A stretch of 64,000 bases of DNA, taken from positions 32,001 to 96,000 of the forward strand of contig JAWLHY010000017.1 in the NCBI GenBank assembly GCA_041690135.1, read 5' to 3'. The stretch is from Armatimonadota bacterium (GTDB lineage Bacteria > Armatimonadota > SYMT01). Under the pieces are notes generated by a model, which saw nothing but the letters and a program-made list of their open reading frames with translations, was not told the origin of the DNA and made no database searches. How positions within the stretch are numbered: the stretch's first letter is position 1; the number at the start of each line of letters is the position of its first letter. The position numbers and the translations under genes were made by a program. This document shows, piece by piece, positions 6,969 to 24,453 of this stretch.

Positions 6969-8465
6969 CTATGCGATGATTTCCTGGATGGGGTGGCCGT
7001 GGTCCATCTCCAGCCGCTTGCGCCCGGGGATTTCCAACCGGCGCGAATCGAGTCCCAGTTGGTGCAGCACGGTGGCATGGATATCCGTAACGTAGTGTCG
7101 GTTCTCCACCGCGTGGAAGCCCAACTCATCGGTCGCCCCGTGTGTGATGCCGCCTTTGACGCCGCCGCCCGCCAGCCAGGCACAGAAGCCCTGAGGGTGA
7201 TGGTCGCGACCGGTGCCTTCGGCTCCTGGTGTGCGGCCGAACTCGGTGCCCCACACCACCAGGGTGTCCTTCAGCATACCCCGGCGTTTGAGGTCCTTCA
7301 AGAGCCCGGCGATGGGAAGGTCCACCTGTTCCGCCAGCCGCGTGTGGTTGGCCTTGATGCCGGAGTGCGCGTCCCACGCGCCGCCGCCTCCGCCGCCGTG
7401 GAATAGCTGGACGAAGCGCACGCCCCGCTCAACCAGCCGCCGCGCCACCAGGCACTGCTCCCCGAAGCTGCGAGTGGTGGGGTTCTCCAGGCCGTAAAGC
7501 TGTTTCGTCTCTTTTGACTCGCGATCCAGGTCCACGGTCTCGGGCACCGCCCGCTGCATCATGAACGCCAACTCGTACGCCTTGATGCGGGCGCGCAGTT
7601 GAGCATCGTCCGGGTAGTCGATCCCCGAAAGGCGGTTGAGACGCCCCAGCAGACTGAACGCCTCCGCCTGCTCGTCCTCGGCCACGCTGTTGGCATGGGG
7701 ACTGATGAAGGGGAGCGGGTTCTTGGGGTCGGTATTCAGCCGGACCCCTGCGTATTCGGGGCCGAGGTAGCCGGAGCCGAAGGTCCACGTCCCCCCGCAG
7801 CAGTCACCGGTCGGCTGACCCAGCACCACGTATTCCGGCAGGTTCTCATTTAGGGTTCCCAGCCCGTAACTCACCCACGACCCCAGGGTGGGCACCCCGC
7901 CCTCACGGGGATGGCGGCCGGTCTGCCAGGTGAGCTGCGCGCCATGGTCATTGTGGATGGTCCAGAGCGAGCGCACCACCGCCAAGTCATCCGCGCATTC
8001 CCCTACGTGGCGGAACCAGTCGCCGACCACCAGGCCGCATTGTCCATAGGGCTTGTAGCCGGTTTGCAACGGCATGAGAGTCTTGCGGTCGCCGTGCCGT
8101 GGGTTCGCGCCGATCAGGATACCATCCACTCGCTTCGGGTCCAGCACGTCCTTATAGGGCGTCTCCTCGATCGACTTGCCCGCGTACTTGTTGAGCTCCG
8201 GCTTGACGTCGAACGACTCCAGGTGGCTCACCCCGCCGCACAGGAAGATCCAGATAACGGACTTTGCCCGTGGAGTGGAGTGGGGCGAGGGACCCTTTGC
8301 GAAGGGTGAAGTGCGAGGTGCGAGGGACGAAGTGTCGGTACCTGCATCCGCGCGCGCGACCCCATCACGGAATAGCATGGAACCGAGCACCAGGCCCGTG
8401 AAGCCCATGCCCGTATCGGCCAGGAAAGAGCGTCGTGTCACGCCCGGACAACGCAATTCCGCCAT
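6969..8465 (-). CDS. DUF1501 family protein with Tat signal peptide
   Basis: TRRSFL Tat motif; AKSVIWIFLCGGVSHLESFD, ARRLVERGVRFVQ, WDAH, TEFGRTP, GRDHHP. ATG 8465 with GGAGAGG RBS. Confidence 0.93.
   Translation of the reverse strand: MAELRCPGVTRRSFLADTGMGFTGLVLGSMLFRDGVARADAGTDTSSLAPRTSPFAKGPSPHSTPRAKSVIWIFLCGGVSHLESFDVKPELNKYAGKSIEETPYKDVLDPKRVDGILIGANPRHGDRKTLMPLQTGYKPYGQCGLVVGDWFRHVGECADDLAVVRSLWTIHNDHGAQLTWQTGRHPREGGVPTLGSWVSYGLGTLNENLPEYVVLGQPTGDCCGGTWTFGSGYLGPEYAGVRLNTDPKNPLPFISPHANSVAEDEQAEAFSLLGRLNRLSGIDYPDDAQLRARIKAYELAFMMQRAVPETVDLDRESKETKQLYGLENPTTRSFGEQCLVARRLVERGVRFVQLFHGGGGGGAWDAHSGIKANHTRLAEQVDLPIAGLLKDLKRRGMLKDTLVVWGTEFGRTPGAEGTGRDHHPQGFCAWLAGGGVKGGITHGATDELGFHAVENRHYVTDIHATVLHQLGLDSRRLEIPGRKRLEMDHGHPIQEIIA
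8293..8335. repeat. 7-bp tandem array plus small hairpin inside DUF1501 gene
   Basis: gaagggt gaagtgc gaggtgc gagggac gaagtgt (8301-8335) overlapping ccctt-tgcg-aaggg (8293-8306). Confidence 0.7.
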
Positions 8466-8496
8466 GTCGTGCACCTCTCCTACGTCGCTGTCCTGT

Positions 8497-11325
8497 CTAG
8501 CGGATAGTGATGAAGTCATTATGGTTCAGAAGCACCAGTACAAGCATCTCCCGGGCTCGCTGCGCCGGGTCGGCGGAAGGCTTGCTGCCGTCCGCTGGCG
8601 CGGTGGCCGCGGTGGTGACGGTTTTTCCCGCTCCGGAGCGGCGCGCGGTGAGGTACTGGAGGCACTCCGAACGCTCGGCGGGGGAGGGGAGCCGAGAGAG
8701 GATCCGCTCGAAAGCCGTATGGATGAACCGTTGTTGATCGGCGCCTATCTGCTTTGTCAGGTCGCGGGCAAGAAGGCGAGATTGCACCAGCGCCAGCTCG
8801 CTGTTGGCCAGTGCCAGCGCCTGTTGGGGGACGATGGTCTCCTTCCGCATGTAGCACTCCAGTGGGTTTGGTCCGTCGAAGGTGCTAAGGAAGACCATCT
8901 CCTTTTCGGGAGCGTGGCGGAAGTAGAGACTTCGTCGCTTGACGGAAAGCCCCTGGTGTTGATCGATCTCCGGACCGCCCATCATCCGATCGAGTTGGCC
9001 CGCCACGTGAAGCACGTTATCCCGGACGATCTCCGCGTCCATTCGGAGGGAGTTCATTCGCCACAGGTACCGGTTATCCGGATCTTTCGCGAGGTTTGCG
9101 GTCTCCGGCGTCGAGGCCATCCGGTAGGTGTTGCTGGTGACGATCAGGCGGTGGAGGCGCTTCATGCTCCAGCCGAGGCCGCCGGTAGGAAAGTGGCCGG
9201 AAGTATTGACAATTGACAATTGCAAATTGGAAATTGCAAATTGTTCTCGCTCCCCAGCCCTCTGCCCCCTGCCCCCTTGAGAGGGGGGGATCGTAGCTGG
9301 CGTGGAGAACAAGGACGCCAAATAGTCCAACAACTCTGGGTGCGTGGGCGGGAGGCTGGCGCGGCCGAGGTCGGCGGGGTTGGGGGCCAGGCCTTTGCCG
9401 AAGTGGCGCAGCCAGATGTGATTGACGGCCGCGCGGGCGGTGAGGGGGTTCTGCGGGTTCACCAGCCACCGGGCAAAGGCGAGGCGGCGGCCTGTGCTCG
9501 TGGCGGGAAAGTTGGAGGTCACCCGGGGCTTGAAGGCCGTGGTGCCGGGGTCCTTCAGTTGTTTTTCGGCTGCCACCAGCGCCTTTTCCGCGACAGCGAG
9601 CGCGTCTTTCGCTTTCTTGAGCGCGTCCGGTTTCGCGGGCGGATTGGCCTTCTCCAGCTTGGCGAGGGCTTCCGTCGCCACCGCTTTGTTCAGGGCTGCT
9701 TCGGCGTGAGCCTGGCGCCGCTGTTGGACGACGGCGTCCTGCGCGGCTTGCTGCCACTCTTCGCTCACCCGCTGCCCCGCATCCTCCAGCGACTCCACCC
9801 GCAATACCGCATCGAGGGCGGCCTGGGCGGCTTCGGCGGCTTCCAGGCGCAGCCGGGCCATGGCGACCTTCTCCGGTGGTCCGCCATCTTCCACTTCCTT
9901 CAGCGCGGCCAGGACCCGTTCCGTGGAAGCGGCGCGGAGATCCCGGATCACGTGCGGCTGCTTCTCGGGTACGTGGGCCCAGAGGGGAAGCTCGACCGGC
10001 TCAACCTGCAGGCGGTCGCCCAGCGCTTCCGGCACTCCCGGCTGCAGGGGCGTGTCCTTCAATGGCTGGCGTTCGTCCCCCCGCACGTACAAGTAGGTGG
10101 GGGCGTCCAGCTTGGCATCGTAGGCGCGTGGCAGGCCGTCCTTCTTCGTGTCCGTCTCTCCGGGGACCCAGTCGGTGCGGACCTGGTGCGGCTCGAAGAT
10201 AGCGCGGAGCTGGTAGTACTCCTTTTGCGAGAGAGGATCGTACATGTGGTCGTGGCACCGAGCGCACCCCACCGTCAAGCCGAGGAACGCTTGCCCCGTG
10301 TGGTCCACCACGTCCTGCATCCACTTTTCCCGGCTCAGCAGCTTGTAATTGCGCACCAGGTAGCCGGTGCCCCGCAGGGCGTCCGCATCGGTCGGGTAGG
10401 CTTCGTCGGCGGCCAGCATCTCCACGACCATCCGGTCGTAGCCCTTGTCCCGGTTCAACGACTCGACGATCCAGTCGCGCCAGCGCCAGATGTGCGGCAG
10501 GCTGTCCCGAACCTGTTCTCCATAGCCGGTCCAGTCGCTGTAACGCCACACGTCCATCCAGTGCCGTCCCCAGCGCTCGCCGTATGCGGGGGAGGCCAGA
10601 AGGCGGTCCACGACCTTCTCATACGCGCTCGGTGAGGAGTCGGCCAGGAAAGCGCGCTGTTCTTCGGGCGTGGGTGAAAGGCCGATCAGGTCCAGGTAGA
10701 CCCGGCGCAGGAGTACGGCCTTGGGGGCTGGCGGACGCGGCTTCAGCCCCCGGCGCTCGTGCTCCGCGGCCACAAAGGCGTCGATTGGGCTGCGCACCCA
10801 GGAAGCGTTCTTGACCTTGGGGACTGCCGGTCGCCGGACGGGCTGGAAGGGCCGCCAGCGATAGGTGCTCGCATAGGCGGCGAACCGCGTCATGGTCTTG
10901 CCGTACCCGGCCAGTTCCTTGGGGCTCGGGCGGTCGGTCGGATCGCCAGGGCGGTGGCCGGTGAGGATCTCGGTCCGGTTCGGGACCCCGTCGCCGTCGC
11001 TGTCTTGTCCACCCACCGCGCGCAGCCGGGTGCTGAAGTCGGTCGCCTTGCCCGCCTGACGCAGTTCCTCCAGCACGGCGGCGAGCCGCTTGCCGAACGG
11101 GTTGTGGGGGAGATCGGCGAGGGACTCGGGAGCCTTGCCGGTGGTCGAGGGAAGATGGCAGGTTCCGCACTGGTTAAGGCGGCCCGCCAGAAAGGTCCCG
11201 TAGTGCTCGCCCAGCGACTTCAGATGCATCGGCTTGGCGTCGGCCCGTTCGGCGGGTGCCAGCGTCAGGAGGGCACCCGCGGCAACCAGGGCAAGATGCA
11301 GGGATGGACGGAACTTTGTGACCAT
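8497..11325 (-). CDS. DUF1549/DUF1553 (PSD1) exported c-type cytochrome-like protein
   Basis: Signal peptide; CGTCH and CARCHDH motifs; LLRRVYLDLIGL, YGERWGRHWMDVWRY, GRRLAFARWL, HPELLDYLA, PQQAL; usual partner of DUF1501. Confidence 0.93.
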   Translation of the reverse strand: MVTKFRPSLHLALVAAGALLTLAPAERADAKPMHLKSLGEHYGTFLAGRLNQCGTCHLPSTTGKAPESLADLPHNPFGKRLAAVLEELRQAGKATDFSTRLRAVGGQDSDGDGVPNRTEILTGHRPGDPTDRPSPKELAGYGKTMTRFAAYASTYRWRPFQPVRRPAVPKVKNASWVRSPIDAFVAAEHERRGLKPRPPAPKAVLLRRVYLDLIGLSPTPEEQRAFLADSSPSAYEKVVDRLLASPAYGERWGRHWMDVWRYSDWTGYGEQVRDSLPHIWRWRDWIVESLNRDKGYDRMVVEMLAADEAYPTDADALRGTGYLVRNYKLLSREKWMQDVVDHTGQAFLGLTVGCARCHDHMYDPLSQKEYYQLRAIFEPHQVRTDWVPGETDTKKDGLPRAYDAKLDAPTYLYVRGDERQPLKDTPLQPGVPEALGDRLQVEPVELPLWAHVPEKQPHVIRDLRAASTERVLAALKEVEDGGPPEKVAMARLRLEAAEAAQAALDAVLRVESLEDAGQRVSEEWQQAAQDAVVQQRRQAHAEAALNKAVATEALAKLEKANPPAKPDALKKAKDALAVAEKALVAAEKQLKDPGTTAFKPRVTSNFPATSTGRRLAFARWLVNPQNPLTARAAVNHIWLRHFGKGLAPNPADLGRASLPPTHPELLDYLASLFSTPATIPPSQGGRGQRAGEREQFAISNLQLSIVNTSGHFPTGGLGWSMKRLHRLIVTSNTYRMASTPETANLAKDPDNRYLWRMNSLRMDAEIVRDNVLHVAGQLDRMMGGPEIDQHQGLSVKRRSLYFRHAPEKEMVFLSTFDGPNPLECYMRKETIVPQQALALANSELALVQSRLLARDLTKQIGADQQRFIHTAFERILSRLPSPAERSECLQYLTARRSGAGKTVTTAATAPADGSKPSADPAQRAREMLVLVLLNHNDFITIR
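9205..9287. repeat. 7-bp tandem arrays plus hairpin inside DUF1553 gene
   Basis: attgaca attgaca attgcaa attggaa attgcaa attg (9205-9243); ctcgctc cccagcc ctctgcc ccctgcc (9246-9273); ccccct-tgag-aggggg (9272-9287). Confidence 0.85.
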
Positions 11326-15594: not shown

Positions 15595-17493
15595 TTACGC
15601 GCCGGCGGAGGCGGCGGGCCCGTCGCCGGACGGGTCGCTGTCGACCTGGGGCCGCGTCGCCGGGACGACCGCCGCGGTTACCGTTGCCTCGGTCTTCGGC
15701 GGGGCCGCATGCCCGTTGCCGGAGCGAGCCCGCAGGAACTCTTCGAGAACGTCCGTTGCCTGGGGGCCCAGCGTGGACAGCAGTTCCTGAATCGGGGCCG
15801 GCAGCGACTTCAGCAAGCCATCCAGCTTGTTGCTGAAGCCCATGCCCTGCGTGTACTGGCTGAACATCGTCGACATCGTGGTCGGATCGCCGTAGATGTT
15901 GTAGTTGCCCTTCGACATGAACTGTCCGAGGGCCGCCGCCAGGGCCATCTGCACTTCCTTGTCCGCTTCGATGCGGAGCTTGGCCGTTTCGAATTCGATG
16001 GCGGCACGGTCGAAGGTCTGGCGGTTCTCCAGCGCCTTGCGCTCGACTTCCACGCGGGCCTGCTCGACGTTGACTCGCTCGCGCTCGACGTTGACTTCCA
16101 CCAGGCGCTGCGCCTGCTCGCCCTGCGCGACCATCTCCTTGGCGCGGGCTTCCGCTTCCGCGAGCTTCAGCCGCGCCTGGGCTTCCAGGTCGGCCGACTT
16201 CTGCGAGGCTTCCGCCTTTTTGATCTCGGCGAAAGCGGCGACCTGCGCCTCTGTCTCGCGCTTGATCCGCTCTTGCTCGATGACCTGCTTGGCCCCAATG
16301 AGCTTGGTTTGCGCTTCGCGCTCCGCCTGGGCAGTGGCCTGGACGGTCACGATCTCCTGGTTGGCGCGTTCCCGCTCGGCCTGGGCCGCGAGAGCCTCCC
16401 GCTCCGCCCGCGCTCGCGCGGCCTCGGCTTCGGCCACGGCAATCTGCTTTTGGCGTTCAGCGAGTTCGACGGCCTTCATGCGCTCGATATCGGTCTGCTC
16501 GCGTTCCTGTTGGCGCCGGATGAGCGTTTGCTCTCGTTCGATGTTCGCCGATTCGATCGCGAGGTCTCGGGCGATCTCCGCCTGGCGTACCGCTTGCTCC
16601 TGGGAGACGGAGAACGCCTGTTTCTCCCGGGCACGTTCGGACTGGATATTGGCAACGTCGCGCTCCTGGTTGGCGACCGCCTCGGCGCGCTGCCGCTCCA
16701 ACTCCAAGACCTGCTGGCGCGTGACCACATCCTGCTGCGTGATCTGCTGCTCCGCCATCCGCTCCAGGCGGTTCCGCTCGACGCGGGCCGCGGCAGTGAT
16801 CTCGGTGATCTTCTTCTTGCCCTGGGCGTCGAAGATGTTCTCATCCGAGAGGCCGCGGGGGTCCGTCTGGTCGAGGCGGGAGATCGTCACGGTCTCCAGC
16901 AGCAGGCCATTCTGCTGGAGTTCCTCGGAGACGAGTTCCTGAACGCCGCTGGCGAAATTCTTCCGATCGGAGTGGATCTCCGCCAGGTCCTTCTGGGCCG
17001 CCACGGAGCGCAGGGCCGACACCAGCTTTTCGAATACCAGGGTGCCGACCGCTTTCGCGTCCACGGACTTGTGTCCCAGGGAGCGGGCGGCCTGCAGGAC
17101 GTCTTCTTCCGTGGGGTTCACGCGAATGTAGAATTCCGCCTTGACATCGACCCGCAGGTTGTCCTGGGTAATCAAGGCGTCCTGATCCATTCGCTCCACT
17201 TCGAGCTTCATCGTTTCCAGGGACACCGGCGCCACCTGGTGCATGACGGGCCAGACAAACAGGCCGCCGTTCAGTGCCACCTGGGCATTGCCCCAGCCTG
17301 TCCGAACGAGAGCCTCACTGGCCGAGGCCCGCCGGAATACGCAAAACAATGAGGTGACGAGACCGACTACGGCTACCACACTCCCAATGCCGGATGCGGC
17401 AAGACCGGGCACTCCCATGGTCGCCGCCACACCGGTGAAACCCGCTATGATCATCACCACGCCGACGATGATCAGCGCAAACCCAAACAACAT
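15595..17493 (-). CDS. Flotillin/SPFH-domain membrane protein (YqiK-like)
   Basis: N-terminal TM segments; LITQDNLRVDVKAEFYIRV, GLLLETVTISRLDQT, NIFDAQG; long A/E/Q/R coiled coil. Confidence 0.92.
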   Translation of the reverse strand: MLFGFALIIVGVVMIIAGFTGVAATMGVPGLAASGIGSVVAVVGLVTSLFCVFRRASASEALVRTGWGNAQVALNGGLFVWPVMHQVAPVSLETMKLEVERMDQDALITQDNLRVDVKAEFYIRVNPTEEDVLQAARSLGHKSVDAKAVGTLVFEKLVSALRSVAAQKDLAEIHSDRKNFASGVQELVSEELQQNGLLLETVTISRLDQTDPRGLSDENIFDAQGKKKITEITAAARVERNRLERMAEQQITQQDVVTRQQVLELERQRAEAVANQERDVANIQSERAREKQAFSVSQEQAVRQAEIARDLAIESANIEREQTLIRRQQEREQTDIERMKAVELAERQKQIAVAEAEAARARAEREALAAQAERERANQEIVTVQATAQAEREAQTKLIGAKQVIEQERIKRETEAQVAAFAEIKKAEASQKSADLEAQARLKLAEAEARAKEMVAQGEQAQRLVEVNVERERVNVEQARVEVERKALENRQTFDRAAIEFETAKLRIEADKEVQMALAAALGQFMSKGNYNIYGDPTTMSTMFSQYTQGMGFSNKLDGLLKSLPAPIQELLSTLGPQATDVLEEFLRARSGNGHAAPPKTEATVTAAVVPATRPQVDSDPSGDGPAASAGA

Positions 17494-17561
17494 CTCCGTT
17501 CTCCTCTCCGGATCGCAGGATCCGGGTCTACGAACGCTTACTCGCCCACTAAGGATACGAT

Positions 17562-18269
17562 TTAAATCCGATCAACAAAGGTGCGGGAATCGTCGACCTG
17601 GTACACACTGCGCTCCGAGTCGTAACCCAGCACGATAATCTCCTGCCCGCTCTCCAGCCGTCCGCTCTCCGTCCGGGCCCGTACCCGGTGCAGGGTGCCG
17701 TGCTGATCCCGGATGTGGACCGTGCCCTCCGAGTCGGTGACCGGGTAAACTACCTGTCCGGTGGAGCCCACGAGTTGTCTTCGCTTTAGCGAAGCCGTCT
17801 CCACCGGACGGTAGACCTTGCCGACGAGGGTCGCGACACCCCGGGTGAACACCAGGCTCAAGAAGAGCGTGACGGGGACGGACCCGAGCAATGCTGAAGG
17901 CCCCGTCGCCTGTACCACCTGGTGGAAGGTCAGGCCGATCGTTCCCCAGAAGAGGAACAGCACTTGCAGCACCAGGCTAAGCGGCGCCTTGCCGGCCCCG
18001 ATAAACAGCAGCGGTCCCATCCAGGGGGCTGCGTGTCCACTATGCCCCGCATCCCCCTCCAGGGAGGCTTCTCCGCCGGCATCCGCATCGACCTCCAGGT
18101 CGAGGTCTACATCGACGTCGGTGTTGACTCCCTCCGCGCCCGCATGTCCGGCTTCCACCATCCCGCCGGCCAACCCGAAAACGGAGGTCATGGTGAGCAG
18201 GATCAGGACCACCGCCAGTGGAATCGAGTAAACTGCATTCCACCACGTGAATAGCCAGCTCAGTTGCAT
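17562..18269 (-). CDS. YqiJ/NfeD-like membrane protein
   Basis: TM segment, acidic D-x-D linker, GKAPL, C-terminal OB-fold-like LVGSTGQV...GTVHIRDQHG; typical flotillin partner. Confidence 0.85.
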   Translation of the reverse strand: MQLSWLFTWWNAVYSIPLAVVLILLTMTSVFGLAGGMVEAGHAGAEGVNTDVDVDLDLEVDADAGGEASLEGDAGHSGHAAPWMGPLLFIGAGKAPLSLVLQVLFLFWGTIGLTFHQVVQATGPSALLGSVPVTLFLSLVFTRGVATLVGKVYRPVETASLKRRQLVGSTGQVVYPVTDSEGTVHIRDQHGTLHRVRARTESGRLESGQEIIVLGYDSERSVYQVDDSRTFVDRI

Positions 18270-19567: not shown

Positions 19568-19804
19568 ATGCCGGAAACAGCGCAGATGGAGATCGTGAAC
19601 GTTGAGGGGCGCGAGATCAAGCTTCGCTGGAAGTCGCCCCGGTTTGGAGAGTGGCTGGCCTGGTGTTACGTGCCGGCCCAGACCCAGCTTCATAACGAGG
19701 GCGCCGGATTCGAAGCGCGCGCCGCCACGCCGGACGAGGCGAAGGAAGCCTGCCTCGCCAAGGCGCGTAACTACCTCAACCAGCGGAGCCCCGCTTCTGC
19801 CTGA
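19568..19804 (+). CDS. Small hypothetical protein (78 aa)
   Basis: GAGAGGA RBS, protein-like composition, fills the gap between operon genes. Confidence 0.7.
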   Translation: MPETAQMEIVNVEGREIKLRWKSPRFGEWLAWCYVPAQTQLHNEGAGFEARAATPDEAKEACLAKARNYLNQRSPASA

Positions 19805-20561
19805 GCCAGCGCAGATCGATGCCCTGGTGATGGCCGGAGGCCGCATCTCCGGGCTCTTCGCCCGAGCGACGGGTACCACCGTGAAAGGATTGGTGCCCGT
19901 CGCCGGTGAGCCCCTGGTGCGGCGCGTGGTCGGCTCCCTTCAGGCCACGCCCGCTATCCGGAGGGTCTGCGTCGTGGGACCCGAGGAGGTGCGAGAAACG
20001 CTGCCGGAAGGCGTCCTCTGGTGCCGGGGAACCGGGCGCGTGGTGCAGAACCTCCGGTCCGGCATCGAGGAGTTGGGGATCTCAAACCGTCGCCTGCTGC
20101 TGTGCGGTACCGACGTGCCTGCCCTCACTCCCGAGGCGCTCTCCGACTTCATCGCGCGAACGCCGGAAGAAGCGGAGATCTCCATGCCCGTGGTGCGCAA
20201 GGAGCGATTCACCGCCACGTTTCCCGGTAATCTGGGGATCTATGTCCGGCTGGTGGAAGGGTCGTTCACGGGGGGCGGCCAGTACCTGGTCGATCCGCGT
20301 AAGCTCCTGGAAGTACTGCCCCTGTTGCAGCGCCTGTTCGACAGCCGGAAGTCCCAACTGGCGATGGCCGCCGTGATGGGGCGGGCGGTGGTGTGGAAGC
20401 TGATCCGGCACCGTCTTACTGTTACGGAGCTCGAGACTCGCCTTTCCGAGTTGACGCATTGCCGGTGCCGCGCCGTAATGGACTGCGCCCCGGAACTGGC
20501 CTTCGACCTGGATGCTTGGATGGACCTGCGCTACTTCGAGGGATGGCTCCAGCGGCCATGA
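19797..20561 (+). CDS. MobA-like NTP transferase family protein
   Basis: DALVMAGG...KGLVPVAGEPLV, GTDVP, FDLD. Probable CTG start at 19797, in frame with ORF 19602-20561. Confidence 0.8.
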   Translation: MPEPAQIDALVMAGGRISGLFARATGTTVKGLVPVAGEPLVRRVVGSLQATPAIRRVCVVGPEEVRETLPEGVLWCRGTGRVVQNLRSGIEELGISNRRLLLCGTDVPALTPEALSDFIARTPEEAEISMPVVRKERFTATFPGNLGIYVRLVEGSFTGGGQYLVDPRKLLEVLPLLQRLFDSRKSQLAMAAVMGRAVVWKLIRHRLTVTELETRLSELTHCRCRAVMDCAPELAFDLDAWMDLRYFEGWLQRP

Positions 20562-21343
20562 ACCCGCGACCCCCACTGCGCCTGACGCTCGGCGGTAACG
20601 CTACCGTGTGGCTGGAGTCGGCGGGCTTCCAGGCGGTGACAGACCCCTGGCTTAGCGAGCGGATCGGTCCCTGGAAGCGCCTGCGTCCGGCGGGAATTGC
20701 TTCCGCCTCCCTTTCCGCGGCGCAGGTGGTGCTGATTTCGCATGCCCACCCCGACCACCTCGATCTCGCCACGCTGGAAGGCGTGGCGCGCGACACCCCG
20801 ATACTGTCCCCGCACGGCGCGCCGCAGCGCAAATTGGAGCGTGCTGGCTTCCGCCGGGTGATCGGCCTGGCGGACTGGGAAGAGTGGGAAGGGGAGGATG
20901 GGCGGGTGGTCGCGACCCCCTGTGTCCACACCCGATGGTCGCTCGGCTTCGTGCTCTATCTGGCGGGAGGGACCGTTTACTTCGCGGGGGACGCCGCTCC
21001 GCGGACTCCGTTTCGCGAGATTCGCGAGCGCTGCGGTCCCCTCGACGTGGCGCTCATGCCGGTTGGTGGGTCCGTTCTCGCGCCCGCGCCGCTCCAGCGG
21101 CATCTCACTCCGGAACTCGCCGCGCGCGCAACGGCGGAACTCGGGCCAAAGGTGGTGGTGCCCATGCACTGGGGACACGTTCCCTGTGTACCGTCCTTCA
21201 TCGACGGCTTTCGCGGAACGGCCGCCGGTTTCGCGGCAGCGCTACGGGAGCTTGCCCCGAACGTGCGCATGCTGATGCCTGGTGATGGTGCGGTTACCAT
21301 TCTCGATTTCTCCGAACCGCAAGGCAGCCGGCCTGGCGGATGA
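20558..21343 (+). CDS. MBL-fold metallo-hydrolase (UlaG-like)
   Basis: TDPWLS, ISHAHPDHLD, YFAGD, PMHWG; ATGA overlap with the upstream gene. Confidence 0.92.
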   Translation: MNPRPPLRLTLGGNATVWLESAGFQAVTDPWLSERIGPWKRLRPAGIASASLSAAQVVLISHAHPDHLDLATLEGVARDTPILSPHGAPQRKLERAGFRRVIGLADWEEWEGEDGRVVATPCVHTRWSLGFVLYLAGGTVYFAGDAAPRTPFREIRERCGPLDVALMPVGGSVLAPAPLQRHLTPELAARATAELGPKVVVPMHWGHVPCVPSFIDGFRGTAAGFAAALRELAPNVRMLMPGDGAVTILDFSEPQGSRPGG

Positions 21344-21614
21344 GGGTGATCCGCCGGAAGGGGTATCCGTCACTAATCCCTTCGACGGCCCTTCTGCCGT
21401 CAACCCGCTCGACTACGCACTCCCCAGGAAGCCGGACTGTCTGGAGTTCGCCACTCGTGCGGCTCACATCCCTCCCAGCCTCACTACCCGTCGTCCAATC
21501 TGTTGTTCCTGGCAATCTGCGACCGTCATGGCCGCGCCGGAATTCCCAGGAATCTCATCCTTTGGTTGCAGTCGGCACATCGGCCGGAAGGCGGAGAAGT
21601 AGCCGGTCTGGGGG

Positions 21615-22709
21615 GTGGATTATAGCCGAGGTAGCGATACTACACTCCCGGATGATGGCGAATACTTCGAGTGGCAGGGACAAGCGGACCCGCTGCCGGA
21701 AGAAAGAGTCGCCATGCAGGGAATTGCCCATCCACAGTGGACCGGAAGTCGCGGTACGGATCGATGCGGGAAGAATGCCCGGACGACCGAATGGCGCGGC
21801 GTTCATGGCAACGTGGAACCACTCCGTGGCGACTGGGTTGTGGTTCCCGCGGAAGCGGCGTCCTCCGAGGCGCCGAGCCGTTGCTGGCACCGGGCGGAGT
21901 TGGCCGGAGAGTGGTTGTGCGGGGAAGTATTCCGCGGTGCGGACCTGCGCGAGGCAAACCTGCGCGGCGCCGACCTCACGGATGCGGATTTGCGCGGGGC
22001 GGACCTGCGGGGAGCCAACCTGTGCCGCGCCAACCTGGCCTGTGCGGACCTGCGGGGTGCGGACCTGCGGCACGCGCACCTTCGCGATCTGCAGTTGGAC
22101 GGCGCAGTCTACGATCGGCGGACGCGCTGGCCCGAGGGGTTTGATCCGAAGTCCCGGACCGAATTACGCAGGGTGGGGGAGAAGAAAGTCCATCGCTCCG
22201 GTTGGCCGGTGGGGTTCTGGGTTCTGGCCGGGTTGACAACCCTTGTCGACCAGGGCACGAAGGGGTTAGTTCGAGAGCTAGTCCCCGAGGGAAATGTCGC
22301 GGGATCGCTCCTGAACGGCACCGTCTTGCTCCAGCACATCGAGAACCGGGGCCTGACCTTCCACCTGCTGGAAGGTCAGGCATCCCTGCTGATTGCGGTG
22401 GGAGCGATCCTACTGCTCGGGGTCCTGGTGGCCTACGCACATCTGCTCAAAAGAGGAAACCTTGCGGAACCCGCGCATCTCGCGGGCCTGGCGCTTCTTT
22501 TCGGCGGGGGTCTTGGAAATCTCCTTGACCGGGTGCTCCACGGTGCCGTATTGGACTTCATCGGGCTTTACGCCGGCCCGACTTTCAACCTCGCGGATGT
22601 TGCCATTCTTGCCGGCGTAGCCTGCTTCGGTCTCACGCTGAACTCGAACTCGCGACACACACTACCGCGCTTTCAGCCTGCCGGCTGCCTGGACGTTTAC
22701 AGAGGGTAA
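21615..22709 (+). CDS. Pentapeptide-repeat / signal peptidase II (LspA-like) fusion protein (alternative start ATG 21714)
   Basis: About 12 A(D/N)Lxx units, then [26 protein letters not shown] and FNLAD in one uninterrupted frame. Confidence 0.85.
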
Positions 22710-22714
22710 AAGAG

Positions 22715-23407
22715 ATGATCATCAGACACATCGAGAGCAAGGAAGTGCTGCTCCGCAACGAAGAAAACACCCTCGACGGCGCGATGCTCCGGGCCGAGGA
22801 CCTGGCGGGCGCCGATCTGCGTTACGCCTCGCTGAAAGGTACCAATCTGGTGGTGGCCGACCTCCAGCGCTGCAGCCTGAAAGGTGCGGACCTTCGCGGG
22901 GCAGACCTTCGGGGTGCCGACCTCCGCGGCGCCGACCTCACGCGAGCGGATCTTCGGGACGCCGACCTGACGGACGCCAACCTGGAAGAGGCCGTCCTGG
23001 TGGGAGCCAACTTCCACAGTACGGAACTTCAGGAAGCCAACCTGGCGCGCGCCAATCTGCGAGGCGCAAACCTGGTGCTGGCGAACCTGGTCCGGACCGA
23101 TTTGCGGGAGGCCAATCTGACGCGAACCAACCTCTACAATGCGAACGTGTGCAGTGCCAACCTGGAAGGCGCCGTTCTCGATGAATGTGAGCTGGACGGC
23201 ACCCGTTACGACAACTTCACGCGCTGGCCGGCGGGCTTCGACGTGGAACGGAGTCGCGCGGTGTTCTCACTCCAGCGGCGACGGGAGGACCGCACTCGCG
23301 CAGGGGCTTCCGATACCCCCGAGACGCGCGCGCGGAATGGGCGGGGCGAAGGTAACCCGCCGCTCCGGAGCCTGGTAGCCGCCGGTGGGAGGCGGTCCAC
23401 CGACTGA
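22715..23407 (+). CDS. Pentapeptide-repeat protein
   Basis: About 28 A(D/N)Lxx units and C-cap GTRYDNFTRWPAGFD; starts 5 bp after the upstream stop. Confidence 0.93.
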   Translation: MIIRHIESKEVLLRNEENTLDGAMLRAEDLAGADLRYASLKGTNLVVADLQRCSLKGADLRGADLRGADLRGADLTRADLRDADLTDANLEEAVLVGANFHSTELQEANLARANLRGANLVLANLVRTDLREANLTRTNLYNANVCSANLEGAVLDECELDGTRYDNFTRWPAGFDVERSRAVFSLQRRREDRTRAGASDTPETRARNGRGEGNPPLRSLVAAGGRRSTD

Positions 23408-24447
23408 GTTCCGGGGTCGGAGCGAACGATAATCGCCGCCCGCGCCGAAAGCGGGCGGCCCCCGGGCAGTTGTAAGATGCCCTCGACGAGGACTCGACTA
23501 CCGTCGAGGGCGGGTGAGGCGCCGAGCAGACAGGAGAAGACGTTGTCTGCCTGGCGGTGCTGCTCGACACCCAGGCCGGTTGTGATCAGGCGGAAGCGGG
23601 CCTCCGGCCAGTGGGTGACGCTGAACCATTCCTGGTAGTCCAGTTCCACCTGCAGATCGTAATCCTCGCTCATTCCGGCCATGAGTTCGCGCAGTTCGGG
23701 TACCAGGCGGATGGCGGTGATGCGGCGCTCGCGCGGTGGAACGCCTCCGGCCCGACCAGACCCACTTCCCGTATCCCTGCCGGCGCCACTCCCGCCTGCC
23801 GTCGGTAGGTTTCGCGATCCCACCACCTCCTGGGACTCAAGATTGGGATACTCATGGCGCGCACCGATGATAGGCGATCGCTGCATCCCCGCGGCGCCCA
23901 GTCCACGCTCGCTGCCGCCGGTGATGGTGCGGCCTCCGGTGGCGAACGCGAGAGGAGCCGCTGTGCTGTCCGGTCGCGCGCGTCGGAAGGCGCGTTCCAG
24001 CAGGGGTGGAGCCACTTCGTTGGGAATCCGCGGGAGGGCCGGCACATCCCGGCTCAAGGGCTCGGCGGCCGCTTCCGTGGCGGGCGTCGGCAGGACGCGG
24101 ATCGGGAGGGAGCCTTCCGCGGGAAATACCAGCCTCGCGCCCTCCTCACGGAATAGCGGCACGGCCGGTGCGGCCGTCGCCGTCGGCTGGAAGCGGGAGA
24201 ATTCTACCTGGGTCATCTCGAGCGGCACGGATGCCCGCTGTTGGATGCGATCCCGGAGGTGGAACTGCTCGATCGGCCAGGTGCGAACCTCCGGAACCAG
24301 GGCCCGGAACGCGGCGCCCATCAGTCCCCCCGCGACCAGGAGTGCCCCCAGCGTGCGGTACCACTCCGGATGGTATGGCAGAAGACCGTAGAGCCAGATG
24401 ACCGGTCGTTCGGGATCCGGCTGGGGTGGGTTCAGAGGGTCCTGCAT
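23206..24447 (-). CDS. Hypothetical single-pass membrane protein, Pro/Ala/Gly/Ser/Thr-rich; last gene of the glycan locus
   Basis: AGGAG RBS; starts 6 bp after the ligase stop; TM segment LGALLVAGGLMGAAF. The 3' end overlaps the convergent gene. Confidence 0.65.
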   Translation of the reverse strand: MQDPLNPPQPDPERPVIWLYGLLPYHPEWYRTLGALLVAGGLMGAAFRALVPEVRTWPIEQFHLRDRIQQRASVPLEMTQVEFSRFQPTATAAPAVPLFREEGARLVFPAEGSLPIRVLPTPATEAAAEPLSRDVPALPRIPNEVAPPLLERAFRRARPDSTAAPLAFATGGRTITGGSERGLGAAGMQRSPIIGARHEYPNLESQEVVGSRNLPTAGGSGAGRDTGSGSGRAGGVPPRERRITAIRLVPELRELMAGMSEDYDLQVELDYQEWFSVTHWPEARFRLITTGLGVEQHRQADNVFSCLLGASPALDGSRVLVEGILQLPGGRPLSARAAIIVRSDPGTQSVDRLPPAATRLRSGGLPSPRPFRARVSGVSEAPARVRSSRRRWSENTARLRSTSKPAGQRVKLS

Positions 24448-24453
24448 CGCGTA

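Follow-up and report, generated by a model that had tools for sequence, protein, structure and literature searches.

A rare fusion of a pentapeptide-repeat beta-helix with a conserved lipoprotein signal peptidase domain

The lipoprotein signal peptidase LspA is an essential enzyme and a much-studied antibiotic target. The portions of the literature available to us describe it as a four-helix enzyme that stands alone, without partner domains. Pentapeptide-repeat proteins are known from other contexts: Qnr and MfpA form long dimers of acidic character, the pentapeptide domain of SV2A is luminal, and the cyanobacterial HglK is a membrane protein with a pentapeptide domain. The structural report on LspA, in the sections available, lists 14 highly conserved residues and assigns the catalytic dyad to Asp118/Asp136 of the S. 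aureus enzyme, which fall in V-x-D and F-N-x-A-D motifs; the C-terminus lies on the cytoplasmic side and the dyad near the outer surface (PMC6952399). Additional lspA copies have been described in the context of LspA inhibitors. According to the available parts of the respective reports, M. xanthus carries lspA3 and lspA4 inside the myxovirescin cluster (PMC8689077), and the globomycin cluster of Streptomyces contains globF, which keeps all 14 conserved residues (PMC9943842).

The stretch of DNA that we analyzed (64,000 nucleotides, hereafter the window) carries a gene that combines these two protein families. The open frame at 21615..22709 on the forward strand is initiated by GTG, encodes 364 aa and contains no internal stop. 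A sequence-only reading of this DNA had proposed that a pentapeptide domain and an LspA domain share one frame, and both domains are indeed recovered above their Pfam cut-offs: PF00805 (Pentapeptide) with 65.7 bits (cut-off 20.2), and PF01252 (Peptidase_A8) with 91.7 bits (gathering cut-off 25) at residues 205-340 of the 364-aa frame. The latter match spans positions 2-138 of the 142 profile positions, and scores 94.4 bits in the genome-wide search. The gene probably starts at ATG 21714 (331 aa) rather than at GTG 21615, since the existing gene call P0001 begins there, since two homologues (P0002 and P0003) likewise open with MQG followed by similar residues, and since a purine-rich stretch, GGAAGAAAGAG, lies 6-16 nt 5' of this ATG. 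The first ~17 residues of the protein resemble those of P0002, and none of the homologues matches the 33 codons that run from GTG 21615. Residue numbers refer to the 331-aa protein unless the 364-aa frame is stated. The features of the gene are the following:

21698..21708, + strand: purine-rich stretch read from the sequence, a possible ribosome-binding site
21714..22709, + strand: fusion gene, 331 aa (P0001), with disordered N-terminus, pentapeptide beta-helix, basic linker and LspA domain
21714..21875, + strand: residues 1-54, predicted to be disordered (pLDDT <50 in the AlphaFold2 model)
21876..22163, + strand: residues 55-150, pentapeptide beta-helix of ~13 units (~3 coils), from Pfam, AlphaFold2 and Foldseek
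22101..22148, + strand: residues 130-145, cap; T137, R138, W139, P140, G142 and P145 are invariant in 5/5 fusion proteins
22164..22202, + strand: residues 151-163, basic linker with net charge +4, in keeping with a cytoplasmic position ahead of helix 1
22203..22646, + strand: residues 164-311, LspA (Peptidase_A8) domain, from Pfam, alignment, AlphaFold2 and Foldseek
22554..22556, + strand: GAC codon of Asp281 in VLDFI, which the alignment pairs with catalytic Asp118 of S. aureus LspA as numbered in the available part of the structural report
22596..22598, + strand: GAT codon of Asp295 in FNLAD, which the alignment pairs with catalytic Asp136 of S. aureus LspA, with the same source and scope

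The number of repeats had been put at about 12 units plus a cap, and cutting the sequence into fives confirms this closely, giving 13 units from WLCGE to QLDGA and then the cap. A promoter scan found no promoter, and an Rfam search of 21200-23600 returned no match.

A gene of this kind could arise artificially, either through a sequencing or assembly error that joins two adjacent genes or through a chimeric contig. The strongest argument against such an origin is recurrence, as the same two-domain order is found in four other metagenomic proteins, which show 41-59% identity to P0001:

P0002: 334 aa, 59% identity
P0003: 309 aa, 46% identity
P0004: 348 aa, 44% identity
P0007: 290 aa, 41% identity

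These are four of the 120 proteins listed, all of them from short assembled contigs; the remaining 115 non-self proteins among the 120 are pentapeptide-only. The distance from the W-P of the cap to the D-Q of helix 1, counted manually on the alignment, is also similar throughout (38-42 residues in 5/5 fusions). That proteins at 41-59% identity repeat the architecture leaves no room for a frameshift or a chimeric contig as its source, and the profile E-values together with the shared domain order in four other proteins exclude chance. Moreover, composition is continuous across the domain junction and the frame is free of stops. In favor of an artifact, the junction at 22140-22220 has no independent cover from the source organism. 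Among the sequencing runs listed for the locus there was no RNA run. Two soil-metagenome DNA runs that contain a small part of the locus yielded three short near-identical contigs (22457-22607, 22647-22797 and 23015-23198) besides many pentapeptide cross-matches; in these two runs no contig or read bridged the junction, and 22088-22453 was uncovered. Given the four independent metagenomic proteins, we regard an artifact as highly improbable.

Within the limits of the searches made, the pentapeptide-LspA fusion is rare. Searches of a collection of 5.8 billion protein clusters yielded five fusion proteins in all. A profile of the LspA core, run against proteins of 260-2000 aa, retained six out of 8000 candidates, which were the same five fusions and the unrelated long LspA P0270. 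The latter (475 aa, from a JGI metagenome) is another extended LspA, in which Peptidase_A8 occupies residues 14-162 and is followed by ~310 residues without a Pfam family. When a full-length profile of the five fusions was compared with 1.84 billion representatives, the full-length single-stretch matches among the best 150 were P0001, P0003 and P0004, and the other 147 of these 150 were long pentapeptide proteins (518-7692 aa); the matches listed reach down to ~256 bits, so that weaker fusions would fall below them. A search of genome contigs with the five-fusion alignment gave 79 loci, none of which reached the LspA part, the query pattern being a single pentapeptide one. Scanning JGI metagenomes with the linker and the LspA part gave four loci with 34-38% identity and LspA frames of 172-187 aa; two of them (L094 and L096) proved on inspection to be ordinary lspA genes. 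Out of 6416 candidates a region-restricted word search picked four proteins, with P0003, P0004 and P0007 not among them, which indicates a limited sensitivity of word-based searching; the census of fusions rests on the protein and profile searches. A search of the ESM Atlas gave no usable match.

Closer relatives give a similar picture. Across 40 genomes of relatives, the best non-self matches span one domain each and reach at most 76.5 bits, versus 832 for the protein itself. The fusion gene was not found in six genomes of the same family or in one of the same order, and none of 400 other genomes sampled from the phylum had a match at E <= 1e-22 (with up to five candidates scored per genome). 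It follows from these absences that the fusion gene is dispensable for the lineage. The same query also brought out a large expansion of pentapeptide-repeat proteins in this lineage: its own genome contains 53 matches, almost all of them to the repeat part, and two genomes of the same family contain 39 and 56, compared with 1-2 in most 2-4 Mb members of the phylum. The sequence-only reading had stated that no described fusion of the two domains was known. This stands as far as the titles and abstract openings of the literature go, where we found no description of a pentapeptide-LspA fusion; the combination as such is already on record, since five proteins in public collections bear both Pfam labels, all of them unnamed. 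The gene thus represents a known enzyme with an undescribed, conserved and rare domain addition.

The LspA domain retains the features of the canonical enzyme. In a HMMER alignment to chain 6ryo_A, whose numbering equals the native one plus 24, all 14 conserved residues given in the available part of the structural report are present (D179, K183, N211, G213, G265, N269, D272, R273, V279, D281, F291, N292, A294 and D295). The motifs had been described as intact, with the catalytic aspartates placed in VLDFI and FNLAD, and both statements agree with this alignment, in which the two residues fall on the published dyad. Thirteen of these 14 residues are identical across the five fusions; only F291 varies, being Ile in P0003. 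The domains as a whole are only 35-64% identical to each other, and an invariant dyad with invariant pocket residues at this divergence favors an active signal peptidase II; we infer that the fused LspA is catalytically competent. Some features set it apart from canonical LspA (S. aureus 6RYO/6RYP and P. aeruginosa 5DIR). Between the catalytic Asp residues the loop lacks 4-5 residues relative to 6RYO and 5DIR, and 3 relative to the housekeeping LspA of the same genome. The score against the NCBIfam equivalog for lspA, TIGR00077, is 70.4 bits and narrowly misses the cut-off of 73.95, which is consistent with a divergent paralogue.

This narrow miss could also be taken to mean that the main use of the LspA part is to fix the pentapeptide module in the membrane by its four helices, its peptidase activity being irrelevant or lost. 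Such a use would agree with the readiness of pentapeptide domains to pair with many unrelated domains (ion-channel, kinase, TIR, HNH and amylase domains among the matches listed). A mere anchor would not be expected to keep the dyad and 11 further pocket residues invariant while the rest of the domain diverges to the extent seen here, and we therefore find this explanation quite improbable.

The predicted structure agrees with the division into domains. An AlphaFold2 model built from a five-row alignment (mean pLDDT 67.6) shows a beta-helix at residues 57-150 with pLDDT >90 and a strand every five residues, followed by the short linker. The LspA half is modeled with moderate confidence (block means 46-82) and consists of helices at 164-189, 223-246, 253-276 and 293-311, with beta-cradle strands at 197-211 between the first two; the four-transmembrane domain that had been proposed is hence recovered at this level of confidence. 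Foldseek places LspA structures at the top (6RYP, 6RYO and 5DIR, with target-normalized TM-scores of 0.74-0.77 and probability 1.00), and among pentapeptide structures it finds 6OMX (Alr5209, the best), 2J8I and 3N90. The protein thus shares with canonical LspA the Peptidase_A8 match, the 14/14 conserved residues of the available source, and the four helices with the beta-cradle; it differs by an N-terminal extension of 163 residues that includes the pentapeptide beta-helix.

The location of the beta-helix can be predicted from the topology of the enzyme. No hydrophobic segment precedes helix 1, the linker carries a net charge of +4, and LspA has its C-terminus in the cytoplasm according to the available part of the structural report (PMC6952399), so that an enzyme with four helices should have its N-terminus there too. 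On these grounds the beta-helix should lie on the cytoplasmic face of the membrane, as the sequence-only reading had supposed.

In order to see what the beta-helix might do, it is useful to compare it with described pentapeptide proteins. The fused helix (~13 units, net charge -1) has the right-handed quadrilateral beta-helix in common with Qnr and MfpA. Its scores fall far under the cut-offs of these families, however (30.6 versus 360 for the MfpA profile, and 21 versus 460 for SmQnr), and in length and charge the helix does not suit a DNA mimic of the Qnr/MfpA kind. With ~3 coils, a near-neutral charge and such scores, a DNA-mimic role is unlikely. The closest counterpart is Alr5209 (6OMX), which has a similarly short helix and the same kind of cap, and which provides the best match both by profile and by fold. 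Against the Alr5209 family NF052603, the best pentapeptide profile, the fused domain scores 71.7 bits over positions 11-109 of 113, which is below the cut-off of 125. Alr5209 is a stand-alone protein, whereas here the cap leads straight into a membrane enzyme. Covalent linkage of a pentapeptide beta-helix to a polytopic membrane protein has a parallel in SV2A, chains of which appear at Foldseek ranks 33 and 44, but the partner in SV2A and HglK is a transporter or a set of helices and not a peptidase. The beta-helix is conserved like the enzyme part: among the 54 invariant columns of the five fusions, 31 fall in residues 55-150, a figure that is inflated by the repeat consensus. Protein docking would be the most economical reading of the helix.

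The genome contains a second lspA, as the sequence-only reading had anticipated when it called the fused copy an accessory paralogue and proposed a check for a separate housekeeping lspA. The assembly (9.1 Mb, 25 contigs, 97% complete) yields two Peptidase_A8 matches, one of which is a stand-alone lspA on contig 16 that scores higher (135.9 bits) and directly precedes lgt (PF01790, 200.4 bits). The same lspA-lgt pair is found in a relative of the same family. Since the higher-scoring stand-alone gene adjoins lgt, the fused LspA can be regarded as an accessory paralogue; unlike canonical lspA, the fusion gene has no lgt, ileS or rluD-type neighbors. The fused and housekeeping LspA domains are 38% identical. 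In a maximum-likelihood tree of 18 rows, P0001, P0002 and P0003 form a clade (98/99) with a long stem outside the housekeeping group of the family; P0004 and P0007 take no firm position in it, and monophyly of the five fusions is not rejected (p-AU 0.52). The long-stem clade outside the housekeeping group and the 38% identity mark the fused copy as an old divergent paralogue or an import, and not a recent duplicate.

Immediately downstream lies another gene of the pentapeptide family, followed by a possible terminator:

22715..23407, + strand: second gene, stand-alone pentapeptide protein of 230 aa, ~29 units, net charge -10 over residues 1-180, with a TRWPxGFD-type cap as in the fusion
23435..23459, no strand assigned: GC-rich hairpin with a 9-bp stem, possible terminator, 28 nt past the stop of the second gene and between convergent units

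The second gene begins 5 nt past the stop of the fusion gene, and because of this short gap the two are probably co-transcribed. Its product scores 111.2 bits against NF052603 and likewise stays under the cut-off of 125.

We consider it somewhat more probable than its alternatives taken together, with a probability of roughly 55%, that the fusion gene encodes an accessory LspA that is tethered or regulated by its cytoplasmic beta-helix, possibly with the co-transcribed pentapeptide protein. Housekeeping lipoprotein processing would be left to the separate lspA-lgt pair. The fused copy would cleave diacylglyceryl-modified prolipoproteins by the same Asp-Asp chemistry, and the beta-helix would serve to bind protein and thereby tether or regulate the enzyme, perhaps together with the stand-alone pentapeptide protein. 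The miss at TIGR00077, the shorter loop between the catalytic Asp residues, the moderate model confidence of the LspA half and the absence from relatives all weaken this explanation. A more far-reaching version, speculative and in our view decidedly unlikely, would make the protein the first lipoprotein signal peptidase to carry its own cytoplasmic module for control or targeting. The beta-helix, by itself or in a pair with the acidic pentapeptide protein encoded downstream, would then link the cleavage of a particular set of prolipoproteins to a partner or signal in the cytoplasm. If true, LspA activity would in this case be controlled from inside the cell and would not be a constitutive housekeeping step. 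The conserved fusion to a beta-helix on the cytoplasmic side suggests that lipoprotein maturation may be tethered, targeted or regulated in some bacteria, and the fusion offers a natural construct for probing the tethering or regulation of LspA. Its practical weight is limited, as five proteins were found and these belong to uncultured soil bacteria.

A different role for the accessory copy is suggested by the inhibitors of LspA. The protein could be a back-up or resistance-type LspA that sustains lipoprotein processing under globomycin- or myxovirescin-type inhibitors, with the same chemistry as in the tethered enzyme and with the helix being secondary. The inhibitor could come from competitors or from the cell itself, and the producers of both known inhibitors carry extra lspA copies, as far as the available parts of the reports show. 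The divergence of the copy from the housekeeping LspA, the shortened loop between the catalytic Asp residues, which lies near the inhibitor pocket, and the near-identical short contigs in soil metagenomes would all fit such a role. Like lspA3/lspA4 of M. xanthus and globF of Streptomyces, the fusion gene is an extra lspA besides the lgt-linked copy, with conserved residues unchanged; those genes lie within an inhibitor cluster, whereas no such cluster accompanies the fusion gene in the 64-kb window, and the available sections mention no extra domain for them, whereas one is fused here. PKS, NRPS or other antibiotic-synthesis genes were absent from the 36 ORFs of the window that were scanned with Pfam, and the neighbors are an FAA hydrolase, a MobA-like protein, an MBL-fold protein and polysaccharide genes. 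A resistance role would furthermore leave unexplained the conservation of a helix that lies across the membrane from the inhibitor pocket. Weighing these points, we see a back-up or resistance enzyme as unlikely, and prefer the accessory LspA that is tethered or regulated by its beta-helix.

The wider neighborhood is composed of two convergent groups of genes. On the 5' side and on the same strand, the FAA hydrolase, MobA-like nucleotidyltransferase and MBL-fold protein genes are separated from the fusion gene by a 370-nt gap. As listed, the MobA-like ORF (19602..20561, + strand) and the MBL-fold ORF (20393..21343, + strand) overlap by 169 nt; the real start of the latter is probably later, as the MBL domain begins at about residue 64. 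On the 3' side and convergent with the fusion gene, a cluster for polysaccharide synthesis and export extends over 24454-61271 on the minus strand. It encodes a Wzy_C polymerase/ligase, a Wzz/P-loop tyrosine-kinase type protein, a WecA-type GT4 enzyme, a 974-aa fusion of fucose pyrophosphorylase and GHMP kinase (fucokinase), several GT1/GT2/GT4 enzymes, a methyltransferase, an asparagine synthase, a polysaccharide deacetylase, an Acyl_transf_3 protein, an ABC ATPase and a Wza-like Poly_export/SLBB exporter. The exporter was considered as a substrate link and rejected, for it has an N-terminal signal-like segment but no lipobox Cys; hence no substrate link to the polysaccharide cluster is seen.

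Between the hairpin and this cluster, 23460-24450 holds no confident gene. A 413-aa ORF without a Pfam match (23206..24447, - strand) overlaps the 3' end of the second gene and crosses the hairpin at 23435-23459, and a 236-aa ORF on the opposite strand (23681..24391, + strand) has a higher third-position GC than this minus-strand ORF. Two further gene pairs lie at the other end of the window. At 6969-11325 (- strand), a PSCyt2 and PSD1 (DUF1549/DUF1553) protein of 942 aa is adjacent to a DUF1501 protein of 516 aa, a combination known as the 'planctomycete-type cytochrome' pair. At 15595-18269 (- strand), a 632-aa SPFH/Band 7 protein stands beside a 235-aa ORF with a weak, sub-threshold match to YqiJ_N, which corresponds to an NfeD/YqiJ-like pairing typical of stomatin operons.
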